Shown in pieces: positions 5,769 through 47,600 of a DNA stretch of 64,000 nt (position 1 is its first letter; each line of letters begins with the position of its first letter). A program made the position numbers and the translations under genes. Below the pieces are notes generated by a model that was given only the letters and a program-made list of their open reading frames with translations, did no database searches and was not told the origin of the DNA. Source of the DNA: Anas platyrhynchos (taxonomy: Eukaryota); assembly GCF_047663525.1 (NCBI RefSeq), contig NC_092619.1:4629441-4693440 (forward strand), given 5' to 3'.

Positions 5769-5849
5769 CAAATGCCAGTAATCATTGCAGGAAATGAGCA
5801 GCAACAGAAAAAATACTTGGGAAGAATGACAGAAGAACCCATGATGTGT
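5769..5849 (+). CDS. ACADM: ACADM exon 6 ([27 protein letters not shown])
   Basis: Acceptor tctttcag; donor GTAAGT at 5850. Length 81 nt. Confidence 0.92.
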
Positions 5850-6744: not shown

Positions 6745-7310
6745 AAAAGGTTCAACATGAGTCAGCAGTCCATGCTTGCAGCCCAAAAGGCCAAATACAT
6801 CCTGGGCTGCAACAAAAGAGGTGTGAGCAGCAGGTTGAGCGAGGTGATTGTCCCCCTCTGCTCTACCCTTGTCAGACTCCACCTCGAGTACTGCATACAG
6901 GTTTGAGGCCCCCAAAACAGGAAAAATGTGGACCTGTTAGAAAGAGTCCAGAGGAGGGCCACAAAGATGATCAGAGAGCTGGACCACCTCTCCTGTGAGG
7001 AGAGGCTGAGAGAGCTGGGGATGTTCAGCCTGGAGAAGAGAAGGCTCCCTCATTGTGGCTTGTGTATTGAAATACTGAAAGGGTTCTTCTAAAAAGGCTG
7101 GAGAGAGACTCTTTGCTCACTCAGATAATACAGGATGAGGAGTGATGTTTTAAACTAAAAGAGGGGATATTTAGGTTAGAGGTTAGGATAAAATTCTTCA
7201 CTCAAAGGGTGAAGAAAACCTGATCTAGTGAGTGGCATCCCTGCCTGTGGCAGGAGGGTTGCAATTAGATGGTCCTTAAGGTCCCTTCCAGCCCAAACCA
7301 TTCTATGATC
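6745..7310 (+). mobile_element. CR1 3' fragment (ORF2 C-terminus plus 3' UTR) in ACADM intron 6
   Basis: [48 protein letters not shown]...[34 protein letters not shown] ; ends ...ggtcccttccagcccaaaccattctatgatc. Confidence 0.85.
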
Positions 7311-7512
7311 ATTAAAAATTATTTAAAATATGCATTTATTAGGAAAATTAACCCATATTTGCTTTGACAGTTGTTGCGTTTTGGTGGTGGTAGGGTATTT
7401 TGTATAATATTTTAGGGTTTACTATGTGGTTTTGGTGCACATAGTCTGCAATAATATGGTTCCTAAAGAAAGAACTTTTTTCCTCAATATTTTATATTTT
7501 ATTTTTTTCTAG

Positions 7513-7656
<144 letters not shown>

Positions 7657-8858
7657 TGACTCATCCTACATTTCCTATTATTCTGTTCTATACTGTTTTT
7701 TTTTTTCCCCAAAGTTAGATATTAGTGTTTCTTTAAAGTTCTGTTGTAAATCCAAGTCTTCATTATGTTTCACCCCAATACAATTTTGCATCTGTGATTA
7801 GTGTATCAGCATAAGTATAAGACTCTCAGGGCTGTGCAAAGCTTAAAAAGGAAATTAAGTGATGATATGGCAACTATACATTCAAGAATACCTCTTAAAC
7901 CTTGATGCTACCAAACAAAATAATTTTGCTTTTTCTTCAAGGGAGGACAGCAGGAGTGTGATTTAATTTGCAAAATACTCAGGAAGCCCATATTACCAGC
8001 TACTTTACTTTGAAGGTGCAGTGATCAAGATCACATGCTATTGATTCTGTTCAAAACATCTCTCACTTTTAGTGAAGCTAGAAACACTCTTGGATTGTGG
8101 TGTTACATTTTATTTTCATAAGGGAAGACATTTTCTAACAGTCAAAGAATCCAGATATTGCTGTGGTGGTGTGTCTGTGGAGCATGCTTGACAATATAGA
8201 CCTCTTTTCATCATGTCTCACATAATACCATACTCATCCCCAACACATAAATTGTCTTAATTTAAGTGAAAAAGCTGTGTGCATTCATTCATAAAGCTGA
8301 ATTTTCTAATTATTTATTTCCTTGTTCAAGGCAGAACTATCAAAGAGAATGTACCAGCTACATGTATCTTTTGACATTACCGAACACCATGAATGTGATT
8401 TACAGCTGTTTAATTTCTAATTGAAATACTTATTTACAACTTAGAAGAATAACATTAAGATCTTAGAAATCAGGTGATAACATTTTCTGTGCAACACTGT
8501 ATCTCCTAAGAATTCATTTTTAAATATGTGATGTGACAGGTTTTTACCTGTTCATGAAACTTTTTTACTGTTCATGAAACTGATAATACCATAAAGACTT
8601 AAAGTAAGTGGAAAAGGTGGAGAATCTTTGCATGTTTATATTAAGTAATTTTATTAAATCTTGAATGTTGCAGTAAGAGATGCAGTGACACTTCTCTCCG
8701 TTGCACACTGTCGGTTTATTTCTGTAAGGGGCAAGAAGAATGGATTGTTAATTTTCTGATAGATTTATTACATGCTAGAGACACTAAATATATAGATATA
8801 CATACACATTGTTAATTGTGAGGATAAACTGAGTTTCCACCACTTTGTTTTACACTAG

Positions 8859-8967
8859 GTACTTCTTGCTTGCTCGTACCGATCCAGATCCAAAAGTTCC
8901 TGCAAGCAAAGCTTTCACTGGATTCATTGTGGAGGCAGATAGCCCTGGCATCCAAATTGGAAGAAAG
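8859..8967 (+). CDS. ACADM: ACADM exon 8 ([37 protein letters not shown])
   Basis: Acceptor ttttacactag; donor GTAAAG at 8968. Length 109 nt. Confidence 0.9.
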
Positions 8968-9768
8968 GTAAAGAAAGTATCTCTTACTTGACAAACCAGG
9001 GGTTATTATTTGTTTCTAAATCAAATCACAACAAATTGCAATTAAAGAAAACATGTTACACAACTGAACGTTTTCACATTGTCATCTTTTCATTTTCACA
9101 ACATAAACTATTCATAAGACATAATTTTACTCAGTCAGATAAAGAATTATTCAGAGTGGATTAAAGGAAAATGACTTTGAATAGCTGCAAAAAAATCTTT
9201 TGAGAACCATTTTATTGATCAATGCCAGTAGATGAGAAATATGCCATAAAAAATAAGGTGGACGGTTTTAACCATAATTACACAGTGAGCTTTAATTTTA
9301 GCTACTGCTTAAGGAAGGTTCTCGAGGTTCTGGTGCAAATTAAATAGGGGAAAAAAAGGGAAGGAATCTGAAAACTTGAAAACTCCATTTTATTTTTTTG
9401 TGCATGTGTTTCTGTTACGGTTATTTTTTTCTACTGCCTGCATACTAGTTTCTTTACTTTTTCCTTTCCCACCTCAAATGATAACAGTTGAACTTGAGAA
9501 AGACCACGTGAGTGATTGCAGCTACAGAATCAATTTTATATAGGCGTAAGATAAACTGCCCAGCTTAGACAAATAAAGGGCATGCTGGTCTGTAAATGCA
9601 GAACTACTATTTGTCACGTATATGGTAATTCTTAGATGAAATTGAAGTGTGTGGGAGGAGCTGGAGGGGAGAAGCTTACCTTATGCTTTGAGTAAACTAA
9701 AGCAAGATGATGTGTTGTACCTTGGAAAAATCAAGTTAGTTGGCACCTCCGTAAATTTCTCTTTTCAG

Positions 9769-9909
9769 GAAATGAATATGGGTCAACGCTGCTCAGATAC
9801 AAGAGGTATTGTCTTTGAAGATGTGAGAGTCCCGAAAGAAAACGTATTAATAGCTGAGGGAGCTGGCTTTAAAATCGCAATGGGAGCTTTTGATAAGACC
9901 AGACCACCT
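9769..9909 (+). CDS. ACADM: ACADM exon 9 ([47 protein letters not shown])
   Basis: Acceptor tctcttttcag; donor GTAAGT at 9910. Length 141 nt. Confidence 0.92.
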
Positions 9910-9986
9910 GTAAGTATCAAAAATAATTTATTTATAAAATGTAATAGGAATTTTTTTGTTTTTATTCTGTGCTGTATTTAATTCAG

Positions 9987-10082
9987 GTAGCAGCTGGTGC
10001 TGTTGGGTTAGCAAAAAGAGCACTCGATGAAGCTACTAAATACGCTTTGGAGAGAAAAACCTTTGGGAAAGTGATTGCTGAA
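9987..10082 (+). CDS. ACADM: ACADM exon 10 ([32 protein letters not shown])
   Basis: Acceptor tttaattcag; donor GTAAGT at 10083. Length 96 nt. Confidence 0.92.
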
Positions 10083-10723
10083 GTAAGTTAATGACATTTT
10101 TATTCATACATATTCACTTATATAAGCTATGTTTTCACATCAGTACAGTAGATGTACTACTAGTGAATTTTCAGGTTTGTTCCTTGATTTTTAGGGTATG
10201 AGTTACTGTATCTCTGCCATTGCTTAGGTTCTCAAATACGTAGGTCAGTGACATCAAAATAAATCTAGCCATGCAGTTACTCCAGGAATTCTTCTAAACT
10301 CTCAAGACATACGTAAGTTCTTCAATACTAAAAAATAGTGATTTTCACGCAAGGTATAAGCTTCTCTGAGCTATATGAAACGATACACAGTATTAATAAA
10401 AACTTAGAATATGTTACCAACCACGCCATTTACCAGTTTTAAAGAAATTTAAATAAACAGCTAGCTAAATAAGATGTCATAAATACTGAAACACAACTTC
10501 ATAATTCAGTACTTAATCCCTGTGACTAAATGAATTTTAGAATGAAAACCTTAAAAGTCTAATTCAACACAGAATTATGACAGCTTGATCCATATTCTGT
10601 AGAACTCATCTTGTACAATTTACGTTGTTGAAGGTATTAGTGTATAAAAAAGATTATATTCTTTTTGGATGTCACAGAATCTTAAGCAGGCAATGTTAAT
10701 CTAGTGTATTTCATCATTCATAG

Positions 10724-11008
<285 letters not shown>

Positions 11009-14000
11009 TAAATTTTATATAGAAATACCTAATGGCTACTTATTTCAAATCTTGATATACACATATGACATAATTTTTTAGAATGACAGTAAGTATCCTT
11101 CAATTTAAAAAAAGGGAAACTCAAATTGGGCAAATTCTTGCATACTATGCACTAGATCAATAGCTTAACCTACATGTAACAAATAAATTTAATGGTGTGT
11201 TTTTTTCCGTATATGGTAACTCTGAAATTCTTAGGCTCTTCTTCATTTGGAATCTTCTTCATTTTGGAATCAAACACTGTAGAAAACACTACCCAAAGTA
11301 CCAATACTTCCTCTGGTATTCTATAAGTAGGTGTAGTTTATGTATGATGCTGTTCTTGAAAACCTTCGGTGCTGGAAATTCTCTGATTTTCCATATGTAT
11401 CATAGACTGGTGCCTGCCTATAGTTTAGCTTTTCCTTCAGCCTGATACCTAGTTCAAATAACAGTTATTGCAAATTATCTCCTTTTACTCCTCAGATCCA
11501 AAGACAGTATGCAGAACAACTGATTGGTACTGACAGTTTAGGAGCTTCTCACGTTTCTCTTATTTTAGTCTAGAAGAGAACACTACAGCGGCTTCTTCAC
11601 CTCTTTCCTCATCAGTCATGCTGAATGACTTTTTTAGTTTTATTTTTTCCTTTTCTGTTTCCAGTCTCTTCATTGCTTCTGGCTGTACTCTAAACCTTAT
11701 GTTTGAAACTTTGGTAGCATAACCCAGGCAGAATATTTCAGTTGATATATCACCAGCATTGAGTGTCATGGACTATATCGTGGTCTTGCATATGTTGTAT
11801 TAACAGAATTATGACACAATCTGGAATGATTGGCCTGTTTTTAACAACAAACCAAACCTATACTTACTCATGTTTAGCCTGTAGTCACCCATAATTCCCA
11901 GGTTTTTCTGCATTATTATTGCTGTGAAATTATTCCATGTTATGTCATAATTCTTGTCTTGGGATATATTATGCTGCAGTTCTTCATTCAGCAAGAATGT
12001 TTTAATTATGCTCAGCAGAACCAGTAATCTTTTCACCTCTTTCTGATAGTAATAGTGGCTAGGTAAAACTTATCAGAATAGGTATCAAGAAATGCATGTG
12101 AACCATAATCTGAAAGGTTAGTTAGTTATAACAGTTGTCGTTCTTAAGATCCTATTAGTTAGCATTTCTCTTATAGCTGACATTAAAATGAAAACTATGA
12201 TTCTCCCTAGCCAATATTTTGGTTTTCTCTGTTTAAGGAAAGACAGCTACTACTTTGGAGTCTAAAGGTCCTTAGTACTAATTGCAGTCCTGCAAGCAAG
12301 ATGAATGAGTAATACAATTTTACTTTGGGCATTTTTTCTGTCAGGTTCTATGTTTTTCTAGAGAAAGATGTGAGGGTTGGAAGCTTATTTAAAAGTTAAG
12401 ATTAATTTTACAGAATTCTAGTTATTCAGATCTTCTATTATACTGATCCATCACAGGTGCATGTCAAGGTAGACTTTTCTAATTGTTCAGTCTAATAAGA
12501 TTTAGTATTAATTTTTGTTGTTTTTCTGCTTCCCTTCTTCCCTTAAAAGAATACAAGGAAGGATTTTGTCTTTAGAATAATTTTGCCCATGTCTCTTGAT
12601 TATGCTTTACTATATTACGGCCCAATTCCACATGGTACATGCTTTTGGCCATGGGTTTCGTGTATAAAACTTCATTTTCCACTTGTTCTTTTCTTCCATA
12701 TATTTGATATTTCTCAGTATTACACAGTTCTACTACTTCCCTTCAGTTGAAGGTGGTGCTTGAAGCTGCTTCCCTTGCTTATAAGCCAAAACCTCTTTTG
12801 CATTTATTTAAGCAGACTGAGAGTTTTGATGTCTTTACACTTGAGTTCCATGGCTGTCTTCATCAGCAAGTAATTTAGTACAATAGGAGGAGATTAGCAG
12901 ATTGCAGGAATAGCTACTGAATGCCCTCCAGCTACACTATATCCAGTTTGGAGAGGCTAAGTTCACAGCATGCCCGTTTGGTTACTTGGACTGAATGTCC
13001 CCATTATGTGTGTAATTGTAAAGGCTTGTAAGTTGTAAACAAATCTGTAAATTGTTATAGGCCTAGACAATTTTGGCTTCATTAGGATTTGGACCGTATG
13101 TGGTGTATAGAGGGAGTAGAGTTTCCAGTTAAGTTTGCTCTAAAAAGCACCTACTTTCACCAAACTAAATCTGCTCTATAACCTGGATCATTGTAGGGTA
13201 AGCAGCAGCAGTCCGATGATTCACTTTGAGAATGAAAAGTTTCCTCTGAAGCAAAAAACTAATGTGACTGCAGGTTATAGTGGTTCTATTTCCAAAAAGC
13301 TTTGTAAGGTTCTTGAGAATACTGTCCCTATTTTATGACTGCAGAAAGTGAATTTACCTGAATTTGAGCAACTCGTCAAACCAAGTTCTGGCGGACCTGG
13401 GAACTGAAACACTTGAATCCCTAAGCTGTGTTACTTCCACCCTCAAATCCTGTTGCAGTATATCTGTGGAGCATAGAGTCTTCTTACTGCATTAGAGCTT
13501 CATATATACAGTGTTTTGCATCTGTGTCTTTCCTGCCATCAAGCCATGTAAAACGGGGATAATGCAGAATGTTTCTAGAAGACGATGCAAGAATGTAAGG
13601 TTAAAGAACAGGAAAAAAGGGATACTGTATTGGAGAGAGTACTAGTTAGCAAGAAGAAATGGAAGTAAATGAATCAAAGCAAATGCTTGATGTGACGTTG
13701 AAAGGCTAGACAACAAAAGTACAACACTCAGCACAAGTCATCTTCTCTTCACCCATTGTTTTAAAACCTAGTTTGTAAAACCTAAACTATGTATTTTCTT
13801 CCTCAGATAACACGTTTTCTTGATCGTTTTTGGCTCCCTATGTCTATTTGCCTGAGAAAATTATTGAATTTAGATGAGAGGATATGAGACTGTCTCTCAG
13901 TATCTTGTGTATGATTTATTTTATTTAGCCAAATGTAGCTACTTAGTCACATTGGAATTTTTCAGTTCTATTTTTCTTGGATTTAACTTTCCAATCCACG

Positions 14001-14099
14001 CTGTAATCTAGTATGCTAAGGAGGTTTAAAAGTGTAGAAAGATCAATTTAAACCTTTTAAAAAATGATCATCTAACATTGTTGCAATTCTTCTTTTCAG

Positions 14100-14171
14100 A
14101 TTTATGAGGGAACTGCTCAGATTCAAAGGATGATCATAGCTCGTGAACATATTAGCAAATTTAAGGCTTAA
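14100..14171 (+). CDS. ACADM: ACADM exon 12, terminal coding part ([23 protein letters not shown])
   Basis: Acceptor ttcttttcag; TAA stop at 14169-14171. Total CDS is 1272 nt, or 423 aa, against 421 aa in human. Confidence 0.92.
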
Positions 14172-14624
14172 AGAAATGTGTGTGGCACTATGGTAGTATT
14201 CTGTGTTCTCATGGAAGAGGATTTTAGTGTGTTTCTCAATACAACGGAAAATTTGTGGAAAAAAAGTCCTTTTCCTTAAAAATCTTTTTATTGAATACGT
14301 TATTAAACACTACTTCTTCCCATCCACTCCCTCTGAATTCCAAAGTGGTTGATTGTTGTCTTTCCCCACTTAATCATTTTCACTCAAATATTTAGCCTTT
14401 GATGGGGGAAGGGAAAAAACCTTCCCTATAAAATTTATAGATTTATTTGATTTAAAAAGTTACCAAAATTCAGATTTTTTTTTTTATTTGTTTTGGTCAG
14501 TGAAGGCATTCAGCATGTGGAAATTCAGCATGAGGATTTAAATACGGAGAGTTTCTGTATTGTTTATAATGATACAGATTTGTTCCGTCTCTTTTATCAT
14601 TGGCATTTGGATGGATATCAAGTT

Positions 14625-14630
14625 AATAAA
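14625..14630 (+). other. ACADM: candidate ACADM polyadenylation signal AATAAA (alternatives: ATTAAA at 14302-14307, AATAAA at 14725-14730)
   Basis: Canonical hexamers in the AT-rich 3' UTR downstream of the stop. Which one is used cannot be told from sequence alone. Confidence 0.35.
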
Positions 14631-17619
14631 TCTCAGGGAAATAGTTACTTACAAATGCTATTCTAATTCCTCAGGAATACCATGTTGCAGCAGATTGTCT
14701 CTAGGTCACCTAGAGCTAGCTGAAAATAAATACGCTAACATGTTGGTTTTGTTGGCCTTTAGAAATTCATATTTAAAAAAAAAAAAAAAGAATATTAATT
14801 TCTGAACCATTCGAAAGCATGTATTATCATGAAATAGAACACACTGCACTATTATTTTTCTCAAACAGAGACAGGATTACTATTTGTAGTTTGTCTATAT
14901 TTTATGTGTGTCCCTGAAGCAATATGAACAAAACCTACTTCTTGTTTTCAAAAGACACAGCATAATAGGGCTTATTTTCAATTTCTTAACCACGTTATTC
15001 ACCTAAATCCAGCACTGAAAAAAATGTCATTGAAAGCCTTTATCTCTGTTCTTCAAAGAAACCTGTTGTGTTCATGAAGAAAATACTTGTGCCTTCTCCT
15101 GTGCAAGACGTCTGCGTTACAGTTGGGTGTTATGGATAGCTTTTGGTAAAAATAATTATGTGGTTTTGTTATAGCATAAATAAGAATGATTGTTCAATTT
15201 TTAACTTTTTAATTTTAACCAATGCCACATAAAATAACCTCTAGGAAACATTGCCATATTTTCATTTATAATGTATCTATTCTAAATTTGAACATTACTC
15301 CAAAAATCCAAGTACAAAAAGGGCAAGAAACGAGAACCTCACAACACAATGTTTTTTCACTGTAAAGTTAGATGATCAAAATGTTATTTCTGACAGCCAT
15401 TGCTGCATTCAAATAAAAACTCATTTTAAACAGAGAGGCGTGGTGGTTTTTATTCATTTTGTTTGCCACATCATTTAAATTGTATTTTGCATAAGTTGTC
15501 CAGCTTCTGAAACAGACAAATAGCTGCACCTCAGTTCCTCCTGTGCTACTGCCCACGACAGCTGCGTGGCTGTTGCGGTTCAGCAGTGTGAAGGCTTTGC
15601 CTGCATGAAGACTGTTCTGAGGACTAAGATCCAACCCAGCAGTGACGGTATGCGGCTTGAAGGAAAGCAGCCTCTCTGACTGGTGCACTTGCTTAAGTAA
15701 ATGTTCAGTCACGATGATTCACTTCAAGTCAAAGTGAAACTTTTCCTTAAGAATGACTTATGTGATCATTTTTATTTCAGATTCAATGTATTTAAAGGTA
15801 TATTCCTTTCCATCAGTGTATGCACTTAACTGTTTGCAGCAGGAACAGCCAAGGAAGAGGAATTTTTGAGAATTTTGTGTTTTGTTTTGGAATTTGGCTA
15901 GGCTCTGCTGGGCAGTGCTGGCAGAACGCGTGTTCCCTGGATGTCTTGGAAAAATTACTCAGCCACATCTGGAGTGCCATATCCAGCTCTGGGCTCCCCA
16001 GCATAAGAGAGAGATGGAGCTACAGGAGACAGTCAAAGGGCCGCTAAATGACAGACAGATGGGACAGCTGCACTGAAGGAACAGATGACAGATTCTGGTA
16101 TTTGTCACATCACGTCACAGTGAGAGTGGTGGGATAAATGCCAACACAGGTCAGATGTTTGTTTTCTGTATAGTCAGTGCTGTCCAGGTAAATTGCAGAA
16201 AAGCAATTTCTAATCAATGGTTTTGATGATTGCAAATTTAAAAAACAAGTACTCTTGGGTAGCAATAACAAAAACTATTTCAGTATGTTACTTAAAAACA
16301 AACACTAATGGACAGACCTTCAGGAGTTAGTCCTATCACTTTCTAAAATAAATAAATCAAATTATAGAATGATGTGCTTTAAAGTTCATAATGGTGACTT
16401 TGCACTCCTGATAAATTTTATAATACTCTGGCTACAGGTTCTCCTGGAACTTCAAATGATTTCCTTTGGATTTTTAAAATTCTCTGCACATTCAGGTGAA
16501 AGCCCAGAAAATGAGTACTGTTTTAATTTTTATATATCTATGCATATATGCATGTGTCTATATAGATGCACATATTACTGTATTTTATAATATTTAATTA
16601 CTTGGTATTTATATAAGCTATGCATTTATGTAATATGTATGATTCAAGTGCAGTACATCTACATTTTAGTACTATACAAAGGAAATATGGTAGGAACCAG
16701 TTCTTGTTCTCAGATCTGCTTTTACGTTAAAAATAAAATGCTCATCAGACTGGTATCATTTTTTCTTTTCTTTTTTCTTTTTTTTTTTATCTGGCTTGTG
16801 GCTTTTTCTTCCCCCTGAGAAAAAGGATTTAATCTCAGTCTTATTTTTTCACCATAGTGACTAGCATTATAAATTTAACTTATAACCATCTATTATGCCT
16901 TTTTTTCCTGTTCCTTCTCATGCAAACCATGGTGGAAAACAATACTCAAAAGCTTCTAAAAAATTGCTTGATTACTTGCACCTCCAGTCCCATCTCATGG
17001 AAGAAATGTTTAAATGGTGTTACAAAAAATAAGATAGTATCCTGGTTTCGGAAGAAAGTATATAGGAATTAAGGTATTGGATTTGAAACCTTTAGGGCAG
17101 AAGAATATTGCTTTCTTGGATCCCTGATGAGTGTTGACATGTATTATCTTATCTAAAGTAGATGTTTATCACCGGTTAAGCTCTAGAATTACTCAGAGAC
17201 CCAGGAAGCTGAAGTTTCTTTAGGTTCCAACCTTTGAGCTTCTCAGAGCTGTCCAGTTGAATTCCTTTCCCAAATTCTAATCCAGCACTAGGAGGCAGGG
17301 GTACACTGTAAGGTCGTTTACATTGATGTATTAGAGATGTGTAGTTCTTGGATTAATGACTGATGGTACTAGGAAATACTTCTACGATAACTGAATATAG
17401 CTTTAGAGACACGAAGTTGAAAAGTGTTAGCAAATGCTAATGATCGTAAAGTCTCGTGGTAAATTTAAGCAGCTTGTCTTGTGCACGTTCTTAGTCCAAA
17501 AACACCATTTAGTTTCCTGTATGTATAAAGGGCCTTGTCACATTGAGAGAGGGAGTTAGGAGAATACAATAAATCACTAACCTTTTAGAAAAGAATTTAC
17601 TAACTTTTAGAAAAGGGGG

Positions 17620-18170
17620 GAACTGGGAGAGGAAGCTAGGTGAATCTTATCAAGTAGAGATAAAGTGATAGCATGAAACTAGGATGCTCAAATTAATTAA
17701 AGCAAGAAGCCTTGGGCCCCAAGGTCAGTCTCCTAATAAGAGTGTGAGCCTATCTTAAGAAACTGGTCCTGCGGATGGACAAGAGCCAAGGAGCAACTGA
17801 GTCTGCACAGAGACAAGAGGTCAACGAGCGGTGACGAGGAAGAGTCATCAATCTTCATCCCCATGACCCCCAATGACCACCACCAGAATACACTGCGCAA
17901 GCGCAGATGGGAGGAGTTTATGGAAATGACTCCTTGGAACTAATTTTAATATGGAGCGGGACAGGTTATGAATATGTATAGGCGTATTGTGAAACTTCAT
18001 GCATATGTAACACTTTACTGCATAAAACCAAGACAAGTTGCTGCGTCAGGTGCACACAACTTTGGCAGGACTACCCCCTGTGCTGCCCAGCGCTGAATAA
18101 ACATACCTACTTTACAATCTTACTGATTGTGGAGTCCGTTTTCCGCAAGTCAACATCTTCCAGGTAAGTG
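17620..18170. mobile_element. LTR-like repeat copy A (preceded by polypurine tract aaaaggggggaa; contains TATA-like and AATAAA signals)
   Basis: About 75% identical to the block at 21440-21690 over at least 200 bp, including gctgcccagcgctgaataaacatacc versus cacccagtgctgcaataaacatacc. No gag, pol or env ORFs lie between the copies. Confidence 0.3.
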
Positions 18171-21100
18171 TACCAGAATAATTGCAGAATTGCAAAATCC
18201 AACAATCAAAATCATGTTCTTGAATCAGTTTGATTAAAACCTGCTTTAGCTCAGGGTTTTAGGCTGGGTGTAGCTTTTATGGTTTAGCTTCCAGGTTTAA
18301 GTGTACCAAAGAAAATCTGCAGCTCTAGTCAGTCTTGCTTTAAAAACAACAATTGTTTCTACTTCTGCCCAGATACCAGAGAGAACCCAAATATTTAAGG
18401 CTGATCAAGAATTCCAGTATTTTGAGAATCTACTGCCCTGCAATTATCAAGTGGGGCACTACAGATAAATGTTAAAATTGTATAGCTATTTACAGATTAC
18501 CACTAGTTGAACTGATTTGCATATATATAGCTATACATAAACTGAAAATGATTTGTTCACTGTTACGTGTAGTAAAGATCCAGATCGCTTGAGCTGTAGT
18601 GTGCACTTTGTGAATGAGGAGATAATCCGTCAGCTGGAAAAGAAAACAGTACAGAGGCATCTTTTTGGTTAATTTTTATCATTGTGTAAAACCTAGTATT
18701 CTAGCATTTTGTTCTGTATTTTCAATAGAGATTTAAAGGTGGTTTTGTTGATGCTGACAAAACTAATCTTTATTTCGTTCCCTGCAATTTACATTCTCGG
18801 AGAAATACATACAAGATTTTCATGTGCTGTACTTCTAGCAAGCCCTAAATCACTTGCACAAGCACAGTCTTCTCATTCGTATTGCTGAAGCTTGTGTATT
18901 TAATGAGGGTGATAGAATACAAAGGAACTTGATGTACCTTAGTTGCATTTCTGATTGCAGGGGAAAGTAAATGCTACTGATGTGGGGAAGGCCATATAAT
19001 TAATTTTGTCCTGTATGAAGGAATTTATTGTAGGCAGAATTCTGAATTGTGTGCAAGTCAGGTGAGTTTTTCTTTACATGGAGATGCTTTAAATAAGCAG
19101 TTACTGCATACTACCTCTAAATGTTCCTTTCCAACTTCTACAAGTAATACCATTTAATCATCAACTATTCTCATTATAATAGTAAAAATCACGCTCTAGG
19201 CTGTGAGACCCCAGCCCGACCAGGAATCCTTCCACTCTGAAGATGTGCAGAATGATTCTGTCATGTTAGCTTTATAATCATGTAAGCAGTCAGAGGCTGG
19301 GGGATTGTAAAAACATAAAGGTATTGATAAGAGATTGTATAAAGGGTGACGCAGAAAATCCGTAGGTGTGCCAGCCTTGTGGAAAACCACGTGGTACTAA
19401 ACAATAACAATATCTCAACCTAGTGTGTCGATTGGCTTATTGTATGTTGGGTAATGAATCCAAACTTTTTATCAGACAACAGAAGCAGCCCCCAGGGTAT
19501 TCATAGTCCCTTGCTCCACAAACAAGAAGTGCAGAAGCAGTTTTACCATTCACACCTCTATTTGCTCATGGGCTCTTCCTCATTCCAGAGAATTATCTGA
19601 TAATTGTGTTTGCTCAAGTTTAGCCCAGTACAGTCAGCAAGATGACTCAGGGAGGAGGCAGTATGGCATTGACACTCAAAAAAGGTATGTGCAGTCATTT
19701 TCAAATTTGGAAAGCTAAGAAACAAGTTTTCACAGAAAAAATACACAAGAGATGGTCACTATTCTACAAGTCATAGACTTCAGTCTGGTATTCTCAGACA
19801 GCTCTCTTGCTGCTTCCTTCATAATATGAGACCATCACATTTCCAAAATACTCTTTTCTGCTACTTAGAATACTTTGCTCCAGTTATATTGCAAAGAGCT
19901 CTTACCCTTGGCAACAACTAGCCTCATAGTTGCCAAAGCTCTAATTGTATATAATTTGCATTATAAGAAACAGTTACTAATTTTGCTCAAGTTGCCTTTT
20001 GCCACTAAGGAGAATTAGGAGTACTTTCACAGGTGAAGGAAGGGGAAATGAAAAAAAAAAAAAAAAAAAAAATGGGATATGCCTTTTTGCATGTATCCCA
20101 AAATGAAGAGTCAGGATTCATATGCTGGAACTTCAATTACCTTTCAAGAAACTGGGGATCCAGAAGCTGGATGATTAGGTTTTAAGTAGCTGAGGGTACT
20201 TACTCCAATAAAAGACAAGTCTGTGGGAAAAAAAAAAAAAAAAATGCATTTTCTTCATGAAGAGAATACCACGAAATTGGGAATCTTAATACTTTCCAGA
20301 AATCTTGTGGTAAGGATTTGGTCCTAAATCTTGAGAAATTATAGGATCCTGAGACAGTAAGTCAACTCCAAGAACTACAGGAGAGGATGTGAATGTTATC
20401 ACCTGTCATTAAGAAGCAAATACCCCAACCGATGTGGTGACAGCAGCAGCAAGAGGAGAGGACGCACAAGCAGGCAGAACTGTCTGTCAAAGTCAAGTGC
20501 AGGAAGAAAGGGCAGAGCTGGAACCTGTAAAGACAGGGTGATAGAGGACAGATGATGTAATAAGGGAGAGGATGAGTTGAAAACAGTCAAGGAAGTGGAG
20601 AGCATCAAGAAAGGAGTTATTTCATGCAGTGGAAAGAAATTGCCAACAGGACAGAAAGCAATCTTTCCATTTTGGAAAGAACCTTTTAGCAAAGCGGTGC
20701 TCCCCAGCCCACTATTTGGCCATCATCCTGCAAAACAGTATTATATTTTTTGGATTTTCACACCTCCTTAGGCATAATGTACTGATTCTTCACTGTTTTT
20801 CATTCCTGCATAGAGTCATTTTTAAACATATAAAGTGTTGGAGAATATCAGAACTCCAAGCGCGTAATAACACATGTAGGATTTCAGAGCTTTATTAATT
20901 TAATAAGAAGCTTTATTAACAGTAATCAGAGGGAAAGAATGGCAGCATCTCTCTCTTGTGTTCTCTACCCGATTGCAGAGACCCGATTTACACACTGTTT
21001 CAAAGAAAGGAAAGAGGTAAGGAAAAAACATTATAACATTAACAAAGTCAAGTGTGCTTTCCTGGGAAGGATGGATGCCAGAATATCATTTAGATCTTAA

Positions 21101-25424: not shown

Positions 25425-25545
25425 AATGGGCCCCGCCCCCTCCCTTCAGGCCCCACCCCCTTCCCTTCAGGCACCGCCCCCCTCCATTCAGGCCCCGCCC
25501 CCCTCCCTTCAGGCCCCGCCCCCCTCCCTCCAGGCCCCGCCCCCC
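25425..25545. repeat. 22-bp tandem repeat (CCCCGCCCCCCTCCCTTCAGG), about 5.5 copies, in MVP intron 14; G-rich on the transcribed strand
   Basis: Near-perfect copies are visible. The transcribed (-) strand reads CCTGAAGGGAGGGGGGCGGGG per unit. Confidence 0.8.
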
Positions 25546-32560: not shown

Positions 32561-32569
32561 CTGCATTCA

Positions 32570-33500
32570 CACCCACCTCATGGTGCTGCTGGGCTGGGAC
32601 GGCCGCTGGGGGCACTGGGAAGGGATTTGGAGGGCACTGGAAGCACTTGGAGGGTGTATGAAGGCATTAGGAGGGGCACTGGGAGCATTGGGAGTTTGGG
32701 GGCACTGGATGGGTATAAGAGACACCGGGAGCACTAGGATGGTGTGTCTGGGGACATTGGGAAGGTCTGGGGGAACTGAACAGGGGTTTGAACACACTGG
32801 AAGCAGATATATGGGATACTGGGAGCCCTGGGATGGACTGTGGAAGGTGACGGGGGGTACTGAAAGGGGGTCCAGGGTGCACTGGGAGCATGTCTGGGGC
32901 CACATGGGATACTGGGAGCACTGGAAAGCAGTGTGTGGGATACTGGGGTAGGTTATAGGAAGCACTGGGAAGGGAGCTGGAGGCACTAAGATGGATTTTG
33001 GGAGCACTGGGAGAGGGTCTGGGGATACTGGATTGGGATACGGGGGCACTGGAGGAATGTGGAACACTGGCAGGAGAACTGGGAGCACTGGGAGTGGGAG
33101 TGGAGGGCTATAGTGAGCTCGTGAGATTACTTGGTCTATAGGGAGTCCTGGCTGTTTTGGGGAACTACGGGGAGCTATGTGAATTACAGGAAGCTACTGA
33201 GGGCAATGGGGAGGACCTGAAGGCATCTGTGGGGGCCGCAGGGTGCTATAGAGGGCTGTGGGTGAGTGGGAAACGTTTATGTGGGTCTACAAAGGATTAC
33301 TGGGGGCTATAAGGAGCTGCAGGGATCTATGGAGAACTACAGAGTGCTGTAGGGGAGCCCTAGAAGTCTACAGGGAGCAGTAATGGGATTATGGGGAGCC
33401 ACAGAGAGCTAAAGGGGGCTATAAGGGGGCTATAGGAGACATGAAGGGCTATAGGAGGCCACAGGAAAATCAGCTACAGGGAGCTACGAGCTCCAGGGGA
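32570..33500. repeat. two adjacent minisatellites filling MVP intron 8: GGGCACTGGGAGCACTGG-like units (32570-33115) and GGAGCTATAGG / GGAGCTACAGG units (33115-33500)
   Basis: Clear tandem periodicity of about 20-25 bp. Confidence 0.7.
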
Positions 33501-33522
33501 GCTAGAGCAGCGGGGCAGGCAC

Positions 33523-33681: not shown

Positions 33682-34154
33682 CTGGGGATGTGGGGATACC
33701 ATCAGCAACCAGCCTGGGGACGCAGGGACGCACGGACCCCTACCCAACCCCTGGCTGGGGACATGGGGACAGACGCACACCTCATGGCCCTCTGCTACCA
33801 GCCAGTCTGAAGGCATGGAGACAGAGAGCACCCCCACGGGCTGCCAGCTTGGGGACAGCACCCCCTCCCACTGTCCTCTGCCACCCACCTGGCTTGGAGA
33901 CCCAATGATAAAGACGGATGTCCCCACAAGTGTCCCCCGAGACCTCCATAACCCCCCAGACATCCCCCACATACCCACCTGCCCCCAGGCACTCGACTGT
34001 CCCCCACGACATCCAGCCACCAGCGGGTCCCCCAGTTGTCCCCTTTGTCCCCAAATCACTCCTGGTTGCCCCGGGCATCCCAGGCTCCCTGGACCCCCAG
34101 TTTCTCCCAGGTGCCTCCAGGTGATCCTGTAAGCCTGGGTGCCCCCTGGGTCAC

Positions 34155-34280: not shown

Positions 34281-34439
34281 CTGGGGATGTGGGAATGTGT
34301 CACCAGCAGGGCAAGGACGTGGCAACGTGGTGAGGACACGGGGCAGGAGCATGGGGATACGGTGAGACACAGTACAGAATATATGGAAGGGGACATTAGG
34401 GCCCCTCAAGGATTCCTTTGGGTCCCTGTGGACCACTTT

Positions 34440-34960
34440 TAAGACCTTCAGGGATGTCTACAGGTATGTCAGGGCCAACTTCAAGTCCCTGGGGACCAAC
34501 CATGGGCTGCTGTAGAAACTTAGCATCCCTCATCAACACATTTAGGTGTTAATTTAGGTGTTGTAGGGTGCTTTGGGACCACCATTGAGATATTTGGGAA
34601 TGCCTACATGTACATCAGGGCCACCCGTGGGCTCCTTGGGGGCACTCAGGGCACCTCGGGGACACCTCAGGGGTCATGCCAGGATCCCTCAGGGATAACT
34701 TTGGGACTTTAAGGGATGCCTCAGAGATGCATTAGGGTCCCTTGGGGCCACCTTTGAGACCTCTGGGGACACCTATACATATACCAGATTCCCTCAGAGC
34801 CATCTGTGTGGCCCCTGGGGCCACCCTCAGGTCCTGAGGTCCACACTTGGGACCCCTGGGGCACCTTACTGTCCCCCACTGATACATTAGGGGCACATTA
34901 TGTCTTAGAGCTGCTCAGGACCACACCTTTGATACCTGTGGGGAAGCTAAGGTCACATTA
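34440..34960. repeat. degenerate tandem repeats (CCTGGGGACC / CCTCAGGGAT units) in MVP intron 6
   Basis: Periodic ggg(g)acc / cctcag motifs. Confidence 0.55.
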
Positions 34961-34989
34961 GGTCACTTGCGAGTCCCTGGGGTGCCCAC

Positions 34990-35226
34990 CTTGATCACAC
35001 GTTGCTGGCCCAACTGGGGCTGCCCGTTGGGCCCCACAGGGTCGAGCACCACGCAGTACTGCCGGGGACCCAGCGTCGTCACCTGCACCTCAGCCACCAC
35101 CTCCTCGAACACCTCTGGGACGTAGGCCTCGCTCTGCTGCTGCGTCACCAGCCACTCCTCACCCGTGCGGCGCACCCGGCCCTGTGCATCCTCAAAGGTC
35201 CGTACGGCTCGCAGGTGCAGGGCTTT
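34990..35226 (-). CDS. MVP: MVP exon 6 ([79 protein letters not shown])
   Basis: Acceptor cccgtag; donor GTGGGC. Length 237 nt. Matches human [80 protein letters not shown]. Confidence 0.85.
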
Positions 35227-36130
35227 CTACGGGAGGGAGGGACAACAGTGGGTGGTGGGACACCAAAAGCTGGCCCCGCCAGGCCTTGTCACCTGTGTGG
35301 GCAAGGCGACAGGGTTATGGGACTTCAGACTCGTCCCATACGGTCCTTGTTATGTGCGGGTGAAGGGAAGACAGGGATATAGTGGATTGCAGCAGGGCTG
35401 GACCCTCTAGAGAGTCCTTGTCACCCACAGGTGCAGGGAAAAAGGGGACACAGTGGGCTCAGGGCAGGGGGAATGGGACCCTCAAACATATCCCCAAGGA
35501 GCCTCGTCACCTGCGGGTGCAGGGGGCACAGGGGGGTGACGGTACCCCACACCTATCCTGGAAGGTCACTTGCCAGCTTGGGTGCAAGAGAATAGCGACA
35601 CAGAACCCCCAAACCCATCCTGAAAGGTCCCTAACACCTGTCTGTGCCCAGAGCACGTAACAGGACCCCCAAATCAGGTCTTTGTTACCTATCAGTACAG
35701 CAGGAATGGGGTCATGGTGGGCTGGTGGGGACAGGATACCCGGAGGGTCCACATCACCCCCTGAGGCAGGGGGAACAAAGACAGCATAGCTGAGGGGGAC
35801 AGTACCCCTCACACAGTCCTCAACACCCATGGGTGCAGGGGGCATGGCAACATGGTGGGTTGGAAGGTCCCTCAGAGGGTTCTCATCACCCATGGGTGCA
35901 ATGGGGACAGTGCCATGATGGATCAGGGGGATAAGACCCTTCACCCACCCTGGAGGATCCTTGTCACACCCACGGTTGCAGGAGAATAGGTACACGGACC
36001 CCCAAACCCAGTCCAGAGGGACCTCCAGAGGCACCACAGGCATGGCTACACTACTGGCTCAGGTCCTGGAGAGTCCCTGTCATCTGCAGGGGCAGGGGAA
36101 ACCACGGGCAAGGGTCACGATGCCAGGTAC
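35227..36130. repeat. minisatellite of about 12 units of 65-80 bp filling MVP intron 5; unit derived from the exon-6 acceptor junction
   Basis: Units such as gtccttgtcacccacaggtgcagggaaaaaggggacacagtgggctcagg are homologous to ...ggtccgtacggctcgcaggtgcagggctttc|tacgggagggagggacaacagtgggtgg, which spans the exon 6 / intron 5 boundary at 35190-35260. Confidence 0.7.
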
Positions 36131-36225
36131 CTTGTCGGTGAGGACGTAGGCGTCCACAACGTCGACCACCTCCTCGTAGACACCGGGCAGGTAGGCACCC
36201 ACCCGCTTCACCAGCCACTCCTCCC
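36131..36225 (-). CDS. MVP: MVP exon 5 ([32 protein letters not shown])
   Basis: Acceptor tctgctcccag; donor GTACCT. Matches human [32 protein letters not shown]. Confidence 0.85.
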
Positions 36226-36239
36226 CTGGGAGCAGAGGG

Positions 36240-37220
36240 ATGGGGCTAAGGATGCTGCGGTGCTGGGCAGGGTGGGGACTGGGAGTCCCAGGGGGACTGG
36301 GATGGGATGCGTTTTGAGGGGACTGGGGCATATGCAGGTCCTAAGGGTGCTAAGCATCCTATGGATCTTAGGTGTCCTAAAGGTGCTGGGAGCAAAGGGC
36401 CCTAGGGGGCAGATGGAAGAATCCTAAGGGTGCTGGGGGTACTGGTAGTTATGGGAGCCCTGTGGGTGCTGGGAATCTTGAGGGGCTAGGGGCTAAGACA
36501 GGGTCCCACAGGTGCTATGGGAGAGGAGGGAGGTTATGGGGTTGGGCAGGATGGATGTGTTGGGCATCACAGGGGCGCAGTGGGGTCAGACAGGGATGCT
36601 GGAGGTGCTGTAGGGTGAGAGGGGGTGCTGGACGGTGGAATGGGAATGCGGGAGACCCCAGGCAAGCTGAGGGATGAGGCAAGTGTCCCAAAGTGTCCCA
36701 CACATGCCGCAGCGCCCAGGGGTGCTTCTGAATAACACAGAAATCCCATGGGTGTTAGGGGGTGACACAGGGGGTGACACAGGGCTCCCAGTGGTGCTGG
36801 AGGGGTCCCATGGGCGCTCAGGATGCTGGGAGTCCCAGGAGGGCTGTCAGACAACACAGAAGGTGTGTGCATGCTTAGAGGAGACACAAGGATTGCGGGG
36901 GTGCTTGGGGTCCCAGAAGTTCTGGGAGATGGGTTGGGGCGCTGCAGGCTCCAGGGGCACTCTCAGATGACCCGGAGCTCCCATGGGTGCTGAAGGGTGA
37001 CACGGGCGTCACAGAGGGGCTGGAGGGGGAGAAGAGGATCCCAGGGTATGGGGTGTGGTGTCTCAGGGCTGCCTTCAGGCAACACTGGGGTCCCATGGGT
37101 GCTGAGGGGGGGGACACCAGAGGCACAGGGTGACACTGAGCCAGCTAACACTGAGTGAGGGCTGAACCCAGGAAGCCACTGCGGCTACCAGGGAGCCCTG
37201 GAGTGTCACCGGGTGCAACG
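36240..37220. repeat. minisatellite filling MVP intron 4 (units around GGTCCCATGGGTGCTGAGGGGGTGACACAG)
   Basis: Many copies of gggtgctgg(g)ag ... tcccatgggtgct. Confidence 0.65.
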
Positions 37221-37239
37221 GGGTGTCCACGAGTGCTAC

Positions 37240-43284: not shown

Positions 43285-44050
43285 ATCATAGAATGGTTTG
43301 GGTTGGAGGCCACCTTAAAGATCATCTAGTTCTAGCCCTGTTCCCACTAGACCAGGTTGCTCAAAGCCCCATGCAACTTGGCCTTGAATGCTTCCAGGGA
43401 TGAGGCATCCACAGCTTCTCTGGGCAACCTGTGCCAGTGCCTCACCACCCTCAGGGTAAAGAATTCATTCAGAATTTGTCCAGAATCATCCAGATAATTA
43501 ATGAAGATGTTAAAAAGACTGGAGACAGTGTTGATCCCTGATCTACACAGCTAGTTACTAGCTTCCAATTAGACTTTCAGTTGCAGATCACAACCCTCAT
43601 GGTCCTTCTGTTCATCCATTTTTCTACCAACATCAGTTTCTCCATGTCTAAGCCATGCATTGTCAGCATCTCTATGAGGATGTTATGGGAGACGGTATGA
43701 AAAGCCTTACGTGTGGAGGTACACATGTAATACACGCCCCTTCAGCACCAAGCTAGTCTCCTCATTGTAATGGGCTATCAGTTTGGTTAAGCCTGATTTC
43801 CCCTTGGTAAATGCATGCTGAGTACTCCCAACTGCCTTCTCCTTCATGTGTTTGGAAGTGGCTTCCAGGAGAGTTTTCTCCCATCACCTTTCTGTGGATA
43901 GTGGGGCTGGCAGGCCTGTTATTTCCCTGGATCTTTCTTTCCTCTTTCCTATCTTGAAGATAGAACTGACATTTGCTCACTTCCAACCTTCAGAAACTTG
44001 TCCCAGCTGCTATAAGCTGGTCTCTTCAGTAAAGACTGAGGCAAAGAGGG
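43285..44050 (-). mobile_element. CR1 fragment (minus), 3' terminus plus RT region
   Basis: Starts cacagtatcatagaatggtttgggttggaggccaccttaaagatcatctagttc. The internal part is homologous to the CR1 RT region at 29600-29900. Confidence 0.75.
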
Positions 44051-44556
44051 CTTTGAGCAGGGAGGGACAAAAAGCGAGGCTTCTGCAAGAACATAAACAG
44101 CAAAAGAAAGACTAAGAAAAACATTGGCCTGGGACTGAATGGGACTGGGGAATGAGTGACAAGCAACAAGAAAAAGGCTGAAGTACTCAATACCTTCTTT
44201 TGCTGTTTATGCTGTTTGTTGTGATGCCTTCACATCAGCTATTAACCTTTCATGCAAATAAAGTTTTTCTCTTGGACCTGCAATGATTGCATTCCATTGA
44301 TCATGACTTATTTCACATTGCTCTGAGCTGCTGTTATAGTTTCCCTAGCTCATTTTGTAAAGTCCTTACTTCTGTTTCTAAATCTCGTACTTTTCCAACT
44401 TCCATCTCTAGTTGTGAGGCTTGTAAACAGGCTTTGTGGGCTTCTAAGATCTTCCTCTCTTCTGATTACGATGTTTTCTTGTCCTCTTGTCCTGCTAATT
44501 TAGGAGTTTCCTACTCCCCTTGTTTCTTGATTTCTTTTTGTAACTTCTTTATCTCT

Positions 44557-44600
44557 TCATTATTATTATTATTATTATTATTTTATTATTTTTTAGGATA
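44557..44600. repeat. (ATT)n / AT-rich microsatellite
   Basis: attattattattattattattattttattattttttagg. Confidence 0.9.
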
Positions 44601-47600
44601 TTCTGTGTGAGTCACATAAGCTATATTAGAGTGTCCACATGGCACATGGCTTCTTTTTTACTGGATTTGAATTTTGCCCATTTGCAATGCCTAACCTAAG
44701 CTTCACAGTCTGCAGAGGTGGCATCTGCTACTTTGAAACAGCAGATCCTCCAAGATCAATTTTCTCCTGTTAAATCACCCGCTTGTGGAATTCGGTAACA
44801 TCCTTTTCCTCAGTGACATATTTATTTAGTGTGAGCTGTGAGGTCTGTTTTATCTTTTGCACTTCCCACACTGCCTTTGCACAAACAAACTCTATGAAGA
44901 GTTTTGTTGTGGGCTAACTTATACGGAGTTTTAAGTGTGCTTTTTGTAAGAACTAATTCCACATTTGCTTTCCTTCAGAGTTCAGTTGATTCTGAGCATC
45001 CAGAGAGACAGACAGCAAGGTGCACTTCTGGTCATCTCATTTGCCATCTTTACAAGCCCTTCACTTTTATTTCAGGTTTTGTCTCTCAGTTTTGGGGCAA
45101 CAGGACAAACTTGGGGTGTGGCTGTTCCTCAGGGCATATTCCCAGACAAAATACTGTTTGAGTCCAACCAAGTGTGTGTCAGGAGCTATTCCTGAAGTCA
45201 GCCAACCAAATATTAAATCAACAAAGTTTCATTTATTGAGGAATGTCTGTGTGCAGCAGCAAGGGCTGCCTTCAGTCCAATATTCTACCTATAGTGCAGC
45301 TCCTTTACTATATAGGGGCAGGAGTATTTCATGCTGCTGATTTACTGCCATCCATCCAGGAGCTATGAATGACTCAGACATCTGCCTTGGAATAGTCTAT
45401 TTCCAGATGCCCAGTGAAGTTTGGGATGCGTCTCACCAGATGGTGAAGGGGTAAGGTTACTCAAAAACACAGAATAAGCACAGTAATTGTCACTTTTCCT
45501 GGCACATAAATATTTATTTATTCAGCAATCTTGCCAAACCTGGATAAGCTCAAACCCCCCAATAAAAACAACCTATTTGTCAAGCAAGCAGGAATAGGAA
45601 AATTCACAGAAGAGAGAATTTTGACTCCAGCACTCCTACACTGAATGCAGGTGAGAGATGTACATAAAAAAATTACAAATGTATCGCCTGTACCTTGCCT
45701 ACATTCTCCATCAGACTATTACACGTAGGTCTGTCATGCATGTCAAAGAGCCACTTCACAGAGAAAGTGCAAAAATGAAACTGATTTGGAGAATTTAGTT
45801 CAAATGGTGCCTACACATTTGATTTCTATAATGTTAAATGGTGCCTTCAAATTTGGGTTCTATAATGTCAAGGATAGAAACTGCACAGACAAAGGTCCGA
45901 GTGTGCAATGAAACACACACAAATCATGATATTCAGATATTCATCAGAGACTATATCTACAGGAATTCCTCTGGGGTCCGCCAGCACCTGGAAGATTTTT
46001 CCAGTTACGGTCCAGTTACAGAGGAACTTATGGCACAGATGACTGAATGAAGACAGAAGTTTCTGAGAGCGTTAGGAAAAAAGAAAGAAAGTGAGACAGC
46101 AAGCTTTCTAATATGAGTAAAGTGGGGAGAACTATGCCCTAAGTTTTGTGGTGAGTGGGGTCTGGTCCCCTGTGTTGGTCTGTTGGCTTCCCTTCCTTTT
46201 TTCTCTTCCTCTGCTTCTCTGACTCACAACACCTGCTATGCGCAGACCTTATAGTTCTACAAAAACTTTCACTGATTCTTACAAAGCCTTTTTAGATTTA
46301 CACACATTAACAAAAAAGCAGCTCCCAACAGACAGTTTTGAGCAGTACTGCCAGAGATCAAAAATAATAATAATTAAAAAATGCTGCTAACAGGGTGTTT
46401 GTTGAGTTGTGGGCAAGTATGGCTTCTCCTAGATGAAAAAAAAAAAGTTCCCAAGAACCATATCCTTTGAAATCCTACCTGGTGCAACAGCATCAAGAAC
46501 AAATAGCTCTTCCTATCTCTCTGTAGATAGTTGTATTACCACATTTGAAGGAGAATTACACAATCACGCATTGCCATCCCACACCCATCATCATAATTCC
46601 AGTCCCTGAGCCAGCACAGCAGAATGCCCAGCTGAGCCAGAAATGACTGAGATTGACTGCTGATCAAGCCTATTTATTCTTTATTGCTGACTGCTCTGGC
46701 AAGACTCACCCTTAGGTGCAGCCAAGCAAACCTCCCTGTTTAACCCTTGTAGCTTTGGATCTGACCTTATGCTCCAGCCCACACGGCTGTGAATGAGTGG
46801 ACTGGGCACAAGCTGAGAGCTCTGCATTCCTCACCCTCATGTCCCAGCTGACACCACTGATGCTGTGCAGATGCTAAATCTTCCTGCTGCCAGGCAGTCC
46901 CTGAGCCCAGGGCAGCTCCAGCTCCTTGGAGGTCTGTGATGAAGCCTACCTGTGGGCTGAGGTGGAGTTGTGAGATGAGCTCTTGACCAGAATCTTCCCC
47001 GGGGAACCTTCGGAGGGAGTGCATCTCCTTGTGGCAGTCTGGCCTGCTGTGACTGCCAGAGGGAGAAAAAAAATCAAGAGACCGATTGATGCGGAGCACA
47101 GTGTCCAGCTCCCCACAGCATGTGCTGGTGAGCTTGCACTCCCATGGCCTGTGGGGAAGACACATGCAGAAGATCTGTGGAGTCAGCACAGCCACCAGGA
47201 CAGATGCACCTGACATTGCCCTTGACATGCACTAACCCCAGCCTGCCAGGACACCACACAGTCCATCCAGCGCTGGGCCAGCTGGGGCCATGGAGATTGA
47301 ACATGCTAAGGCCAGACCCAGGCCCAGATGATGGGCGGCCATGGGGATGTTCTGCCCTGGCACTAGGCCCAGCGCTATGCAGGCAGAGGGCATCCAGATG
47401 TCCCCAGTTATAGATGGCACGGCCACTGGGTCAGCCTGTCTGGAGCTGGGTGCAGCACCCAGCCCTTCAGCCCCTCCAGCTGTTGCAGGAGGATCTCCAC
47501 TGGTGGAACAGCCAGGCCTTCACAATTCAACGGGAAAGTAGAACATTTTGTTAATTGCATGAAAATCAAAAGAAATGATGGTGGATGGGACACATGAGGT

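Follow-up and report, generated by a model that had tools for sequence, protein, structure and literature searches.

MVP, the gene for the major vault protein, lies on the minus strand of a 64,000-nucleotide stretch of the Anas platyrhynchos genome (NCBI RefSeq assembly GCF_047663525.1, contig NC_092619.1, positions 4,629,441 to 4,693,440), which is referred to here as the window and is numbered from its first nucleotide (nt). The intron between coding exons 5 and 6 of this gene (36130..35227, minus strand; 904 nt, GT..AG) consists from end to end of a degenerate tandem array of about 13 units. The array is genuine and old, and it has changed by whole units over evolutionary time. The intron is probably the decayed product of a local tandem duplication that now persists as a neutral spacer of stable length, and the unit itself is probably derived in part from the beginning of exon 6.

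The gene was identified from the flanking exons, the translations of which match the rat and human major vault protein structures (E 2e-65, residues 192-303). Coding exon 5 (36225..36131, minus strand) has AG/GT borders, with the donor gt at 36130-36129, and corresponds to rat MVP residues 196-229 (PDB phmmer); coding exon 6 (35226..34990, minus strand) has 79 codons and ends in ...QQRVIK. An earlier reading made from the letters of the window (the sequence-only reading) had placed the intron correctly and had called the element intron 5, a number that holds when only coding exons are counted; six of these were counted from the ATG. Human MVP has a non-coding first exon, and if this is also the case here the number becomes 6. 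The intron has a G+C content (GC) of 59% and a CpG observed/expected ratio of 0.20, compared with 0.70 in exon 6.

Structure of the tandem array

The periodicity of the intron is real but weak. Tandem Repeats Finder, even at score 30, reported no array in the intron because the units are only about 60-75% alike, and self-BLAST at word size 9 did not detect it. The base-wise autocorrelation of the intron reached its maximum at a lag of 61-62 (z ~3.6), and a repeat-family search returned families of 4-6 copies that are 38-53 nt long, 60-74% identical and spaced 63-86 nt apart. For the profile searches, eleven sense-strand anchors GGTGACAAGGAC were located, the 80-nt cores around them were aligned and a hidden Markov model was built from the 11 unit cores. 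With this profile, nhmmer gave 12 matches (E 1e-13 to 1e-2), one of them outside the training set, that tile 36129..35266 head to tail, and the best profile match outside the array in the whole 64-kb window reached 5.1 bits. In a cross-validation, a profile made solely from the nine units of a more distant bird (locus L012, see below) recovered the window units at up to 37 bits. The periodicity expected from the sequence-only reading was therefore confirmed by the autocorrelation and the tiling, Tandem Repeats Finder remaining blank. Its count of about 12 degenerate units was close to the 12 profile matches and ~13 units found here; the unit size, given as 65-80 bp, was measured as about 51-86 bp.

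The array begins at intron base 2 and ends 39 nt before the acceptor, and the count of ~13 units includes one stretch without a profile match. The units have the sense-strand core ccctgcacc-ygyrg-GTGAC-aaGGACcctc; they are ~57-75% alike and are 57-81% identical to their consensus. As a head-to-tail array with a unit size within 10-100 bp, the intron is a minisatellite by definition. Unit 1 (36061..36129, minus strand; nhmmer 34.0 bits, E 1e-9) contains the acceptor-like sequence cccctgcag followed by ATGACA, with the G at 36084. It is followed by the 55-nt stretch without a profile match (36006..36060, minus strand), where the anchor spacing is 116 nt, or about two units, and which is probably a very degenerate unit. 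Eleven further minus-strand units, with nhmmer scores that range over all eleven from 11.9 to 46.6 bits, lie at 36005-35943, 35942-35864, 35866-35803, 35808-35735, 35738-35665, 35659-35611, 35610-35550, 35548-35483, 35471-35402, 35405-35326 and 35328-35266. The remainder of the intron (35227..35265, minus strand) comprises a last, partial unit, ggtgtcccaccacccactgttgtccc, beyond which lies tccctcccgtag, the functional polypyrimidine tract with the acceptor.

Conservation and change of the array among birds

For comparison, fragments of MVP were taken from public assemblies, in which they occur as host DNA. Ten contigs of the same species from ten sequencing runs (L096-L105), which are short-read assemblies picked for an identical 537-nt open reading frame (ORF) inside the array, all carry a 904-nt intron with 0-1 mismatch and together represent at least three exon 6 haplotypes. 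As the array is present in ten independent assemblies, it is not an assembly artefact. Two single-nucleotide polymorphisms segregate in exon 6 in these runs, at exon nucleotides 153 (G/A) and 189 (T/C), corresponding to window positions 35074 and 35038. Beside them the diversity of the intron is oddly low, which may come partly from the choice of contigs with an identical ORF.

Differences in unit number were found between taxa. In a close relative (L094/L095) the intron is 849 nt long and 95% identical to that of the window; in a global alignment the two differ by one 63-nt gap and one 8-nt insertion, and the gap corresponds to a whole unit (35823..35885, minus strand) that is absent in the relative. 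In a more distant bird (L012/L013) a 726-nt intron is built from the same unit family as that of the window, and in a third lineage (L001-L010), which is represented by many samples, the intron is 198 nt long and holds about three units. The last of these introns could be either the ancestral state or the result of a secondary collapse; exon identities of 88.0%, 88.9% and 85.8% did not resolve the branching order of the three lineages. The interiors of the window and L012 arrays are collinear at 66-70% identity, against the 73% seen in the match across intron 4 and exon 5, which indicates that most of the duplications predate the split between these two lineages. Taxa whose intron lengths differ 4.5-fold share the same exon borders and reading frame. 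The comparison across bird species that had been proposed from the sequence thus yielded introns of 904, 849, 726 and 198 nt in four taxa, with a unit family common to the window and L012. Copy-number variation within the species, another check proposed from the sequence, was not seen in the ten runs.

Relationship between the unit and exon 6

From sequence comparison, we consider it plausible and fairly probable, rather than proven, that the unit is partly derived from the first 37-40 nt of exon 6. The putative source of its exon-derived half is formed by exon 6 nucleotides 5-40, CCCTGCACCTGCGAGCCGTACGGACCTTTGAGGATG (35187..35222, minus strand), which align to profile positions 46-81. The profile match begins at exon nucleotide 5 (nucleotide 3 by the consensus) and carries on the phase of the last unit in the intron. 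Local scoring of the beginning of the window's exon 6 yields 2.1 bits (E 0.015 in 100 nt); the register is that of the sequence-only reading, and the alignment is in phase with the preceding unit. The exons of the other birds give higher scores with the same window-trained profile: the first 37 nt of L012 exon 6 reach 12.1 bits (E 3e-4 in 4.9 kb, 0.043 in 655 kb), and L094 exon 6, aligned in the same register, reaches 6.3 bits. Among background sequences the highest score is 8.1 bits, found in ~480 kb of unrelated non-bird eukaryotic MVP loci; this negative background consists of non-bird MVP transcripts from a metagenome scan for further bird MVP orthologues, which besides these returned only L014 (= L013). 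The low score of the window exon is explained by a change in its own codon 8 (35203-35205). This codon is ACG in L012 and ACC in L001, both encoding Thr, ATA (Ile) in L094 and GTA (Val) in the window; a change from ACG to ATA amounts to a double CpG decay.

In simple counts of identity against the 37-nt majority consensus of the window units, the exon starts match at 21/37 positions in the window, 22/37 in L094 and L001, and 24/37 in L012; among 127,000 background positions compared with the unit consensus, 30 reach 21 matches (2.4e-4 per site) and none reaches 24. The mismatches between exon and consensus in the window are rich in transitions (10:6, P = 0.016 against an expected one third). 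Furthermore, at the position of the exon CTG-CG-R the 11 units carry CA five times, TG four times, and TA and GG once each, and at the position of the L012 exon A-CG they carry CA six times, TG three times, and TA and CG once each. A CpG or its deamination product is thus found in almost every unit at the CpG sites of the exon, as expected if the units are CpG-decayed copies of the exon. In addition, the exon start has its two best BLAST matches 21 nt apart, a spacing that is predicted by the unit.

The strongest alternative, which we nevertheless regard as unlikely, is a purely intronic array: amplification of an inner unit of the intron would have extended to both splice sites, and the likeness to exon 6 would be a chance one between GC-rich sequences. 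Several results weigh against an exon origin, most of them in favour of this alternative. The intron/exon 6 junction was not reported by nhmmer at E ≤ 10 over the whole window; its profile score is only 2.1 bits, and ungapped position weight matrix (PWM) scans, made for both junctions of the intron, were marginal with a local p of 0.04-0.08. The exon score swings from below 0 to 12 bits on one or two substitutions in codons 7-8, and L001 exon 6 has no match to the window-trained profile. With a profile trained on L012, the exon matches of 8.1 and 6.6 bits fall among the background, being no better than its best match. A blastn-short search of the intron with exon 6 gave 22.3 bits over 11-15 nt, which is the level of shuffled introns (95th percentile 22.3, maximum 28.2). 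The register favoured by a half-unit PWM is a different one, with the polypyrimidine tract and CAG of the unit placed on the real polypyrimidine tract and AG (8.5 bits); in L001, with its short intron, the unit lengths agree better with this register. Moreover, other MVP introns also contain arrays, and a blastn-short screen found no exon-derived copies there.

Against a purely intronic array, the exon match adjoins the array in phase, and the same register was obtained with three versions of the exon and with two independently trained profiles. The 24/37 matches of L012 were not equalled in the background, and both the CpG-decay pattern and the excess of transitions are predicted by true homology. 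The similarity between the units and exon 6 on which the sequence-only reading rested is therefore supported by the orthologue profile matches, the decay pattern and the transition excess, the match in the window being weak. Its identification of the exon 6 boundary as the first, founder unit is in phase with the array and is backed by the 6.3 and 12.1 bits of the orthologous exons; the window itself offers only 2.1 bits and 21/37.

Two further observations concern the exons. A chimeric unit, consisting of an exon 6 stub, an exon 5 stub and the whole intron, was considered because TGACAAG followed by GTAC at the exon 5 donor resembled the GTGACAAGGAC anchor; a scan of all breakpoints against 300 decoys gave p = 0.15, and this candidate was rejected. 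Exons 5 and 6 share stretches of 22-32 nt with 78-91% identity, ~1065 nt apart (35096-35163 and 36165-36226; EEVV... and GEEWLV), a resemblance that stems from the internal repeat domains of MVP and not from the intronic array.

Acceptor-like motifs and splicing

The real acceptor segment, tccctcccgtagaa, was not found in the array units. In the register of the sequence-only reading, tccctcccgtag followed by AA appears as a 12-16-nt insertion that is private to the last, functional copy. Acceptor-like sites, in which pyrimidines make up at least 72% of the 18 nt that precede C/T-AG, occur in 4 of the ~13 units (G at 36084, 35761, 35511 and 35293); the remaining units read CATGG, TGTGG or CGTGG in place of a pyrimidine-rich CAG. 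The functional acceptor is preceded by an AG-free zone of ~44 nt. The CAG of some units aligns with the Leu-Arg codons CTG-CGR of the exon, the change being from CTG-CGR to CTG-CAG, and so would be a decay product (CpG to CpA) and not a copy of a 3' splice site. It had been claimed from the sequence that the units copy the acceptor and that every one of them carries an acceptor-like motif, forming a string of decoy or cryptic 3' splice sites. These claims were not borne out, since tccctcccgtagaa, with the real polypyrimidine tract and AG, is missing from the units and a plausible decoy is present in only the four units named.

A functional splicing element, with decoy or cryptic 3' splice sites tuning the splicing of MVP or producing exon-length variants, is very unlikely. 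It could draw on the four units in which a pyrimidine-rich tract precedes CAG and on the fact that minisatellites spanning an exon boundary can provide pseudo splice sites. In the 37-bp variable number tandem repeat (VNTR) of intron 7 (IVS7) of human F7, for example, the first unit spans the exon 7/IVS7 boundary and the repeats provide pseudo donor sites (Borensztajn et al., PLoS Genet 2006; PMC1557585). However, the pseudo-sites are silent in this precedent, nine of the ~13 MVP units have no acceptor-like site and the real acceptor segment has not been copied into the units. The number of copies ranges from ~3 to 14 among birds, yet neither the exon borders nor the reading frame has changed, the divergence of the units looks neutral and involves CpG loss, and a search of Rfam at E ≤ 1 matched no RNA family in the array. 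The exon-length polymorphism suggested earlier is likewise at odds with exon borders that are the same in four taxa and with a 904-nt intron that is identical in ten runs. Nothing in the sequence suggests a role of the array in splicing or any other function.

The MVP intron resembles that of F7 in that a terminal unit lies at an exon border and in that motifs like splice sites seemingly offer no competition to the authentic site. The two differ in other respects: the F7 repeat lies on the donor side, has pseudo-sites identical to the real one and is polymorphic in copy number, whereas the MVP array abuts the acceptor side, does not repeat the real acceptor, has highly diverged units and shows no polymorphism in the sample. 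In F7 each repeat reproduces the authentic splice site; in MVP a pyrimidine-rich stretch with CAG is limited to the 4 of ~13 units.

Finally, it is exceedingly improbable that the units are a dispersed repeat or transposon-derived satellite inserted in the intron, since the remainder of the 64-kb window and 327 kb of other loci contain no copies of them, orthologous introns excepted. It is just as improbable that the array hides a coding exon in its 178-codon stop-free sense ORF (35507-36043, minus strand). The length of this ORF and its record as protein cluster P0121 (14 members, 29 contigs) speak for such an exon, but the ORF was rejected as coding since a protein search returns only this locus, in the species and its close relative, the ORF is shortened to 101 codons with 77% identity in the sister taxon and has a one-unit deletion inside it, and the flanking exons join in frame without it. 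The P0121 cluster is apparently a spurious gene prediction made on host DNA that is present in the assemblies of sequencing runs.

Comparison with known repeat systems

'Sequence stuttering' of introns has been described in genes of the chicken dot chromosomes (Hron et al., Genome Biol Evol 2026; PMC12954441). In its exon-derived form, exon stuttering, the adjacent intron contains repeated copies of a lateral exon fragment. The median length of these fragments is 36 bp, and more than 90% of them lie no further than 1 base from the border (PMC12954441). The MVP intron fits an old, quiescent member of this recently described avian class. MVP, like the genes described, belongs to a bird and lies in GC-rich sequence, and each of its introns examined is filled with imperfect tandem blocks, tens of bases long, of a kind of its own; the expanded imperfect blocks of intron 5 are confined to that intron, with 12 matches inside it and none outside. 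The putative exon piece of ~37 nt at the border, copied through the adjacent intron with the exon left untouched, also agrees with exon stuttering. Exon-seeded minisatellites had been called unusual in the sequence-only reading, a judgement that does not hold in view of this avian phenomenon and of the array present in each neighbouring MVP intron examined.

There are also several differences. The published account emphasises extensive intron variation between individuals and gives a repeat edit distance below 20%, and its exon-stuttering screen used blastn-short with a length of at least 20 and a bit score of at least 42.1 (PMC12954441). The MVP units are far more decayed, with ~57-75% identity, and the array is not seen by Tandem Repeats Finder. 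The best BLAST match between exon 6 and the intron stands at 22.3 bits against 42.1, and a gene-wide screen gave nothing above 22.3 bits. The copies lack the splice site, and the intron is 904 nt long in all ten runs (from contigs picked via an identical ORF). Unlike recent stuttering arrays, the MVP array is common to deeply diverged bird lineages and is therefore old rather than recent. MVP is not mentioned in the main text of PMC12954441 or in those of its supplements that were searched.

With classical GC-rich minisatellites and VNTRs the array shares head-to-tail units of 50-86 bp, a G/C strand asymmetry, G-quadruplex-type runs on the plus strand and the gain or loss of whole units between close relatives. 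It differs from them in that it is not hypervariable in the sample, unit number varying only between taxa and not between alleles, and in that its units are too diverged for ongoing homogenisation. In the Rogers model, of which an example is reported by Hellsten et al. in 2011, a new intron is said to arise by tandem duplication of an exon segment containing AGGT. As in that model, a tandem duplication would have placed exon-derived sequence in an intron with the outer sites being spliced; in MVP, unlike in the model, a pre-existing intron would have been lengthened and the duplicate then amplified many times.

Proposed origin of the array

The steps by which a local tandem duplication would have produced the present intron can be outlined as follows. 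A segment comprising most of a short ancestral intron and the first 37-40 nt of exon 6 may have been duplicated in tandem, likely by replication slippage or unequal exchange, and the upstream copy of the exon piece would thereby have come to lie inside the intron. The unit could then have been amplified to ~13 copies by slippage or unequal exchange, possibly aided by the G-run-rich plus strand, on which the intron carries six overlapping G-quadruplex-type motifs clustered at two sites. The intronic copies would have decayed, mainly through CpG deamination, and the real acceptor segment would have been lost or never kept, with splicing retaining the outermost donor and the last acceptor. Neutral drift may have followed, and the occasional yyyCAG motifs would be by-products of decayed Leu-Arg codons. 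Whole units gained or lost between relatives and a CpG-depleted decay of the intronic copies are shown by the data; the exon origin, the mechanism of duplication and amplification, the continued use of the outer splice sites and the neutral drift are inferred. The neutrality of the array is assumed in this scheme, a point that counts against it.

The chances seem about even that the intron is an ancient, quiescent exon-stuttering array. Such an array would have been seeded at the border of exon 6, prior to the divergence of at least three deep lineages of birds, would have ranged over ~3-14 units since then and would have fallen through CpG decay below what BLAST can detect.

Neighbouring introns and genomic context

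Intron 5 is one of several private arrays in MVP. An excess of 8-mer direct repeats over dinucleotide shuffles extends over the whole of 32.1-37.5 kb and is highest in intron 8 (z = 20), compared with z = 11.7 in intron 4 and z = 9.6 in intron 5. When read by eye, introns 4 (36226-37239), 6 (34281-34989), 7 (33682-34154) and 8 (32561-33522) each contain their own short degenerate repeat, pyrimidine-rich on the sense strand, and the unit profile of intron 5 matched none of the four. In intron 4, for example, such a repeat reads cccagcaccc-t-aggac; intron 8 has ctcc-tatagccc and tcccagtgctcc. Intron 4 of L012 carries the same repeat family as intron 4 of the window. Coding exon 3 starts with the 10-mer GTGTCACCCC (37575-37566), which recurs at least four times in the non-adjacent intron 4 (36757-36784 and elsewhere in the intron), including a perfect 12-nt tandem; these recurrences could be due to chance in GC-rich sequence or to another exon-related repeat.

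The MVP region itself has a GC content of 59-62%. Sharp shifts in composition surround it: the MVP block (22000-44000) has 50-62% GC, and the flanks at 2000-20000 and 44000-46000 have 34-40%. A GC-rich, repeat-rich dot-microchromosome setting is a trait of stuttering (PMC12954441), and these shifts bear on whether the locus sits in dot-chromosome-like sequence. At 25429-25545, in a stretch of 61% GC, a GC-box-like 21-nt unit, GGCCCCGCCCCCCTCCCTTCA, is repeated 5.6 times with 89% identity; this may be the promoter region of a neighbouring gene.

Implications

For MVP itself, nothing points to a functional consequence of the array. If the exon origin holds, an exon-stuttering event would be dated to before the split of several bird lineages, and the decayed appearance of such arrays would be CpG-depleted, invisible to Tandem Repeats Finder and BLAST, and stable in length. 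Unit profiles combined with orthologous exons are suggested as a route to further cases. If the intron is indeed an ancient exon-stuttering array, intron stuttering in birds would not be only a recent, hypervariable trait of chicken dot chromosomes and would also have left long-lived fossils. Much of the length of introns in GC-rich genes of birds would then consist of such fossils, and searches with profiles would bring to light many more exon-derived introns than were detected by the published BLAST screen.

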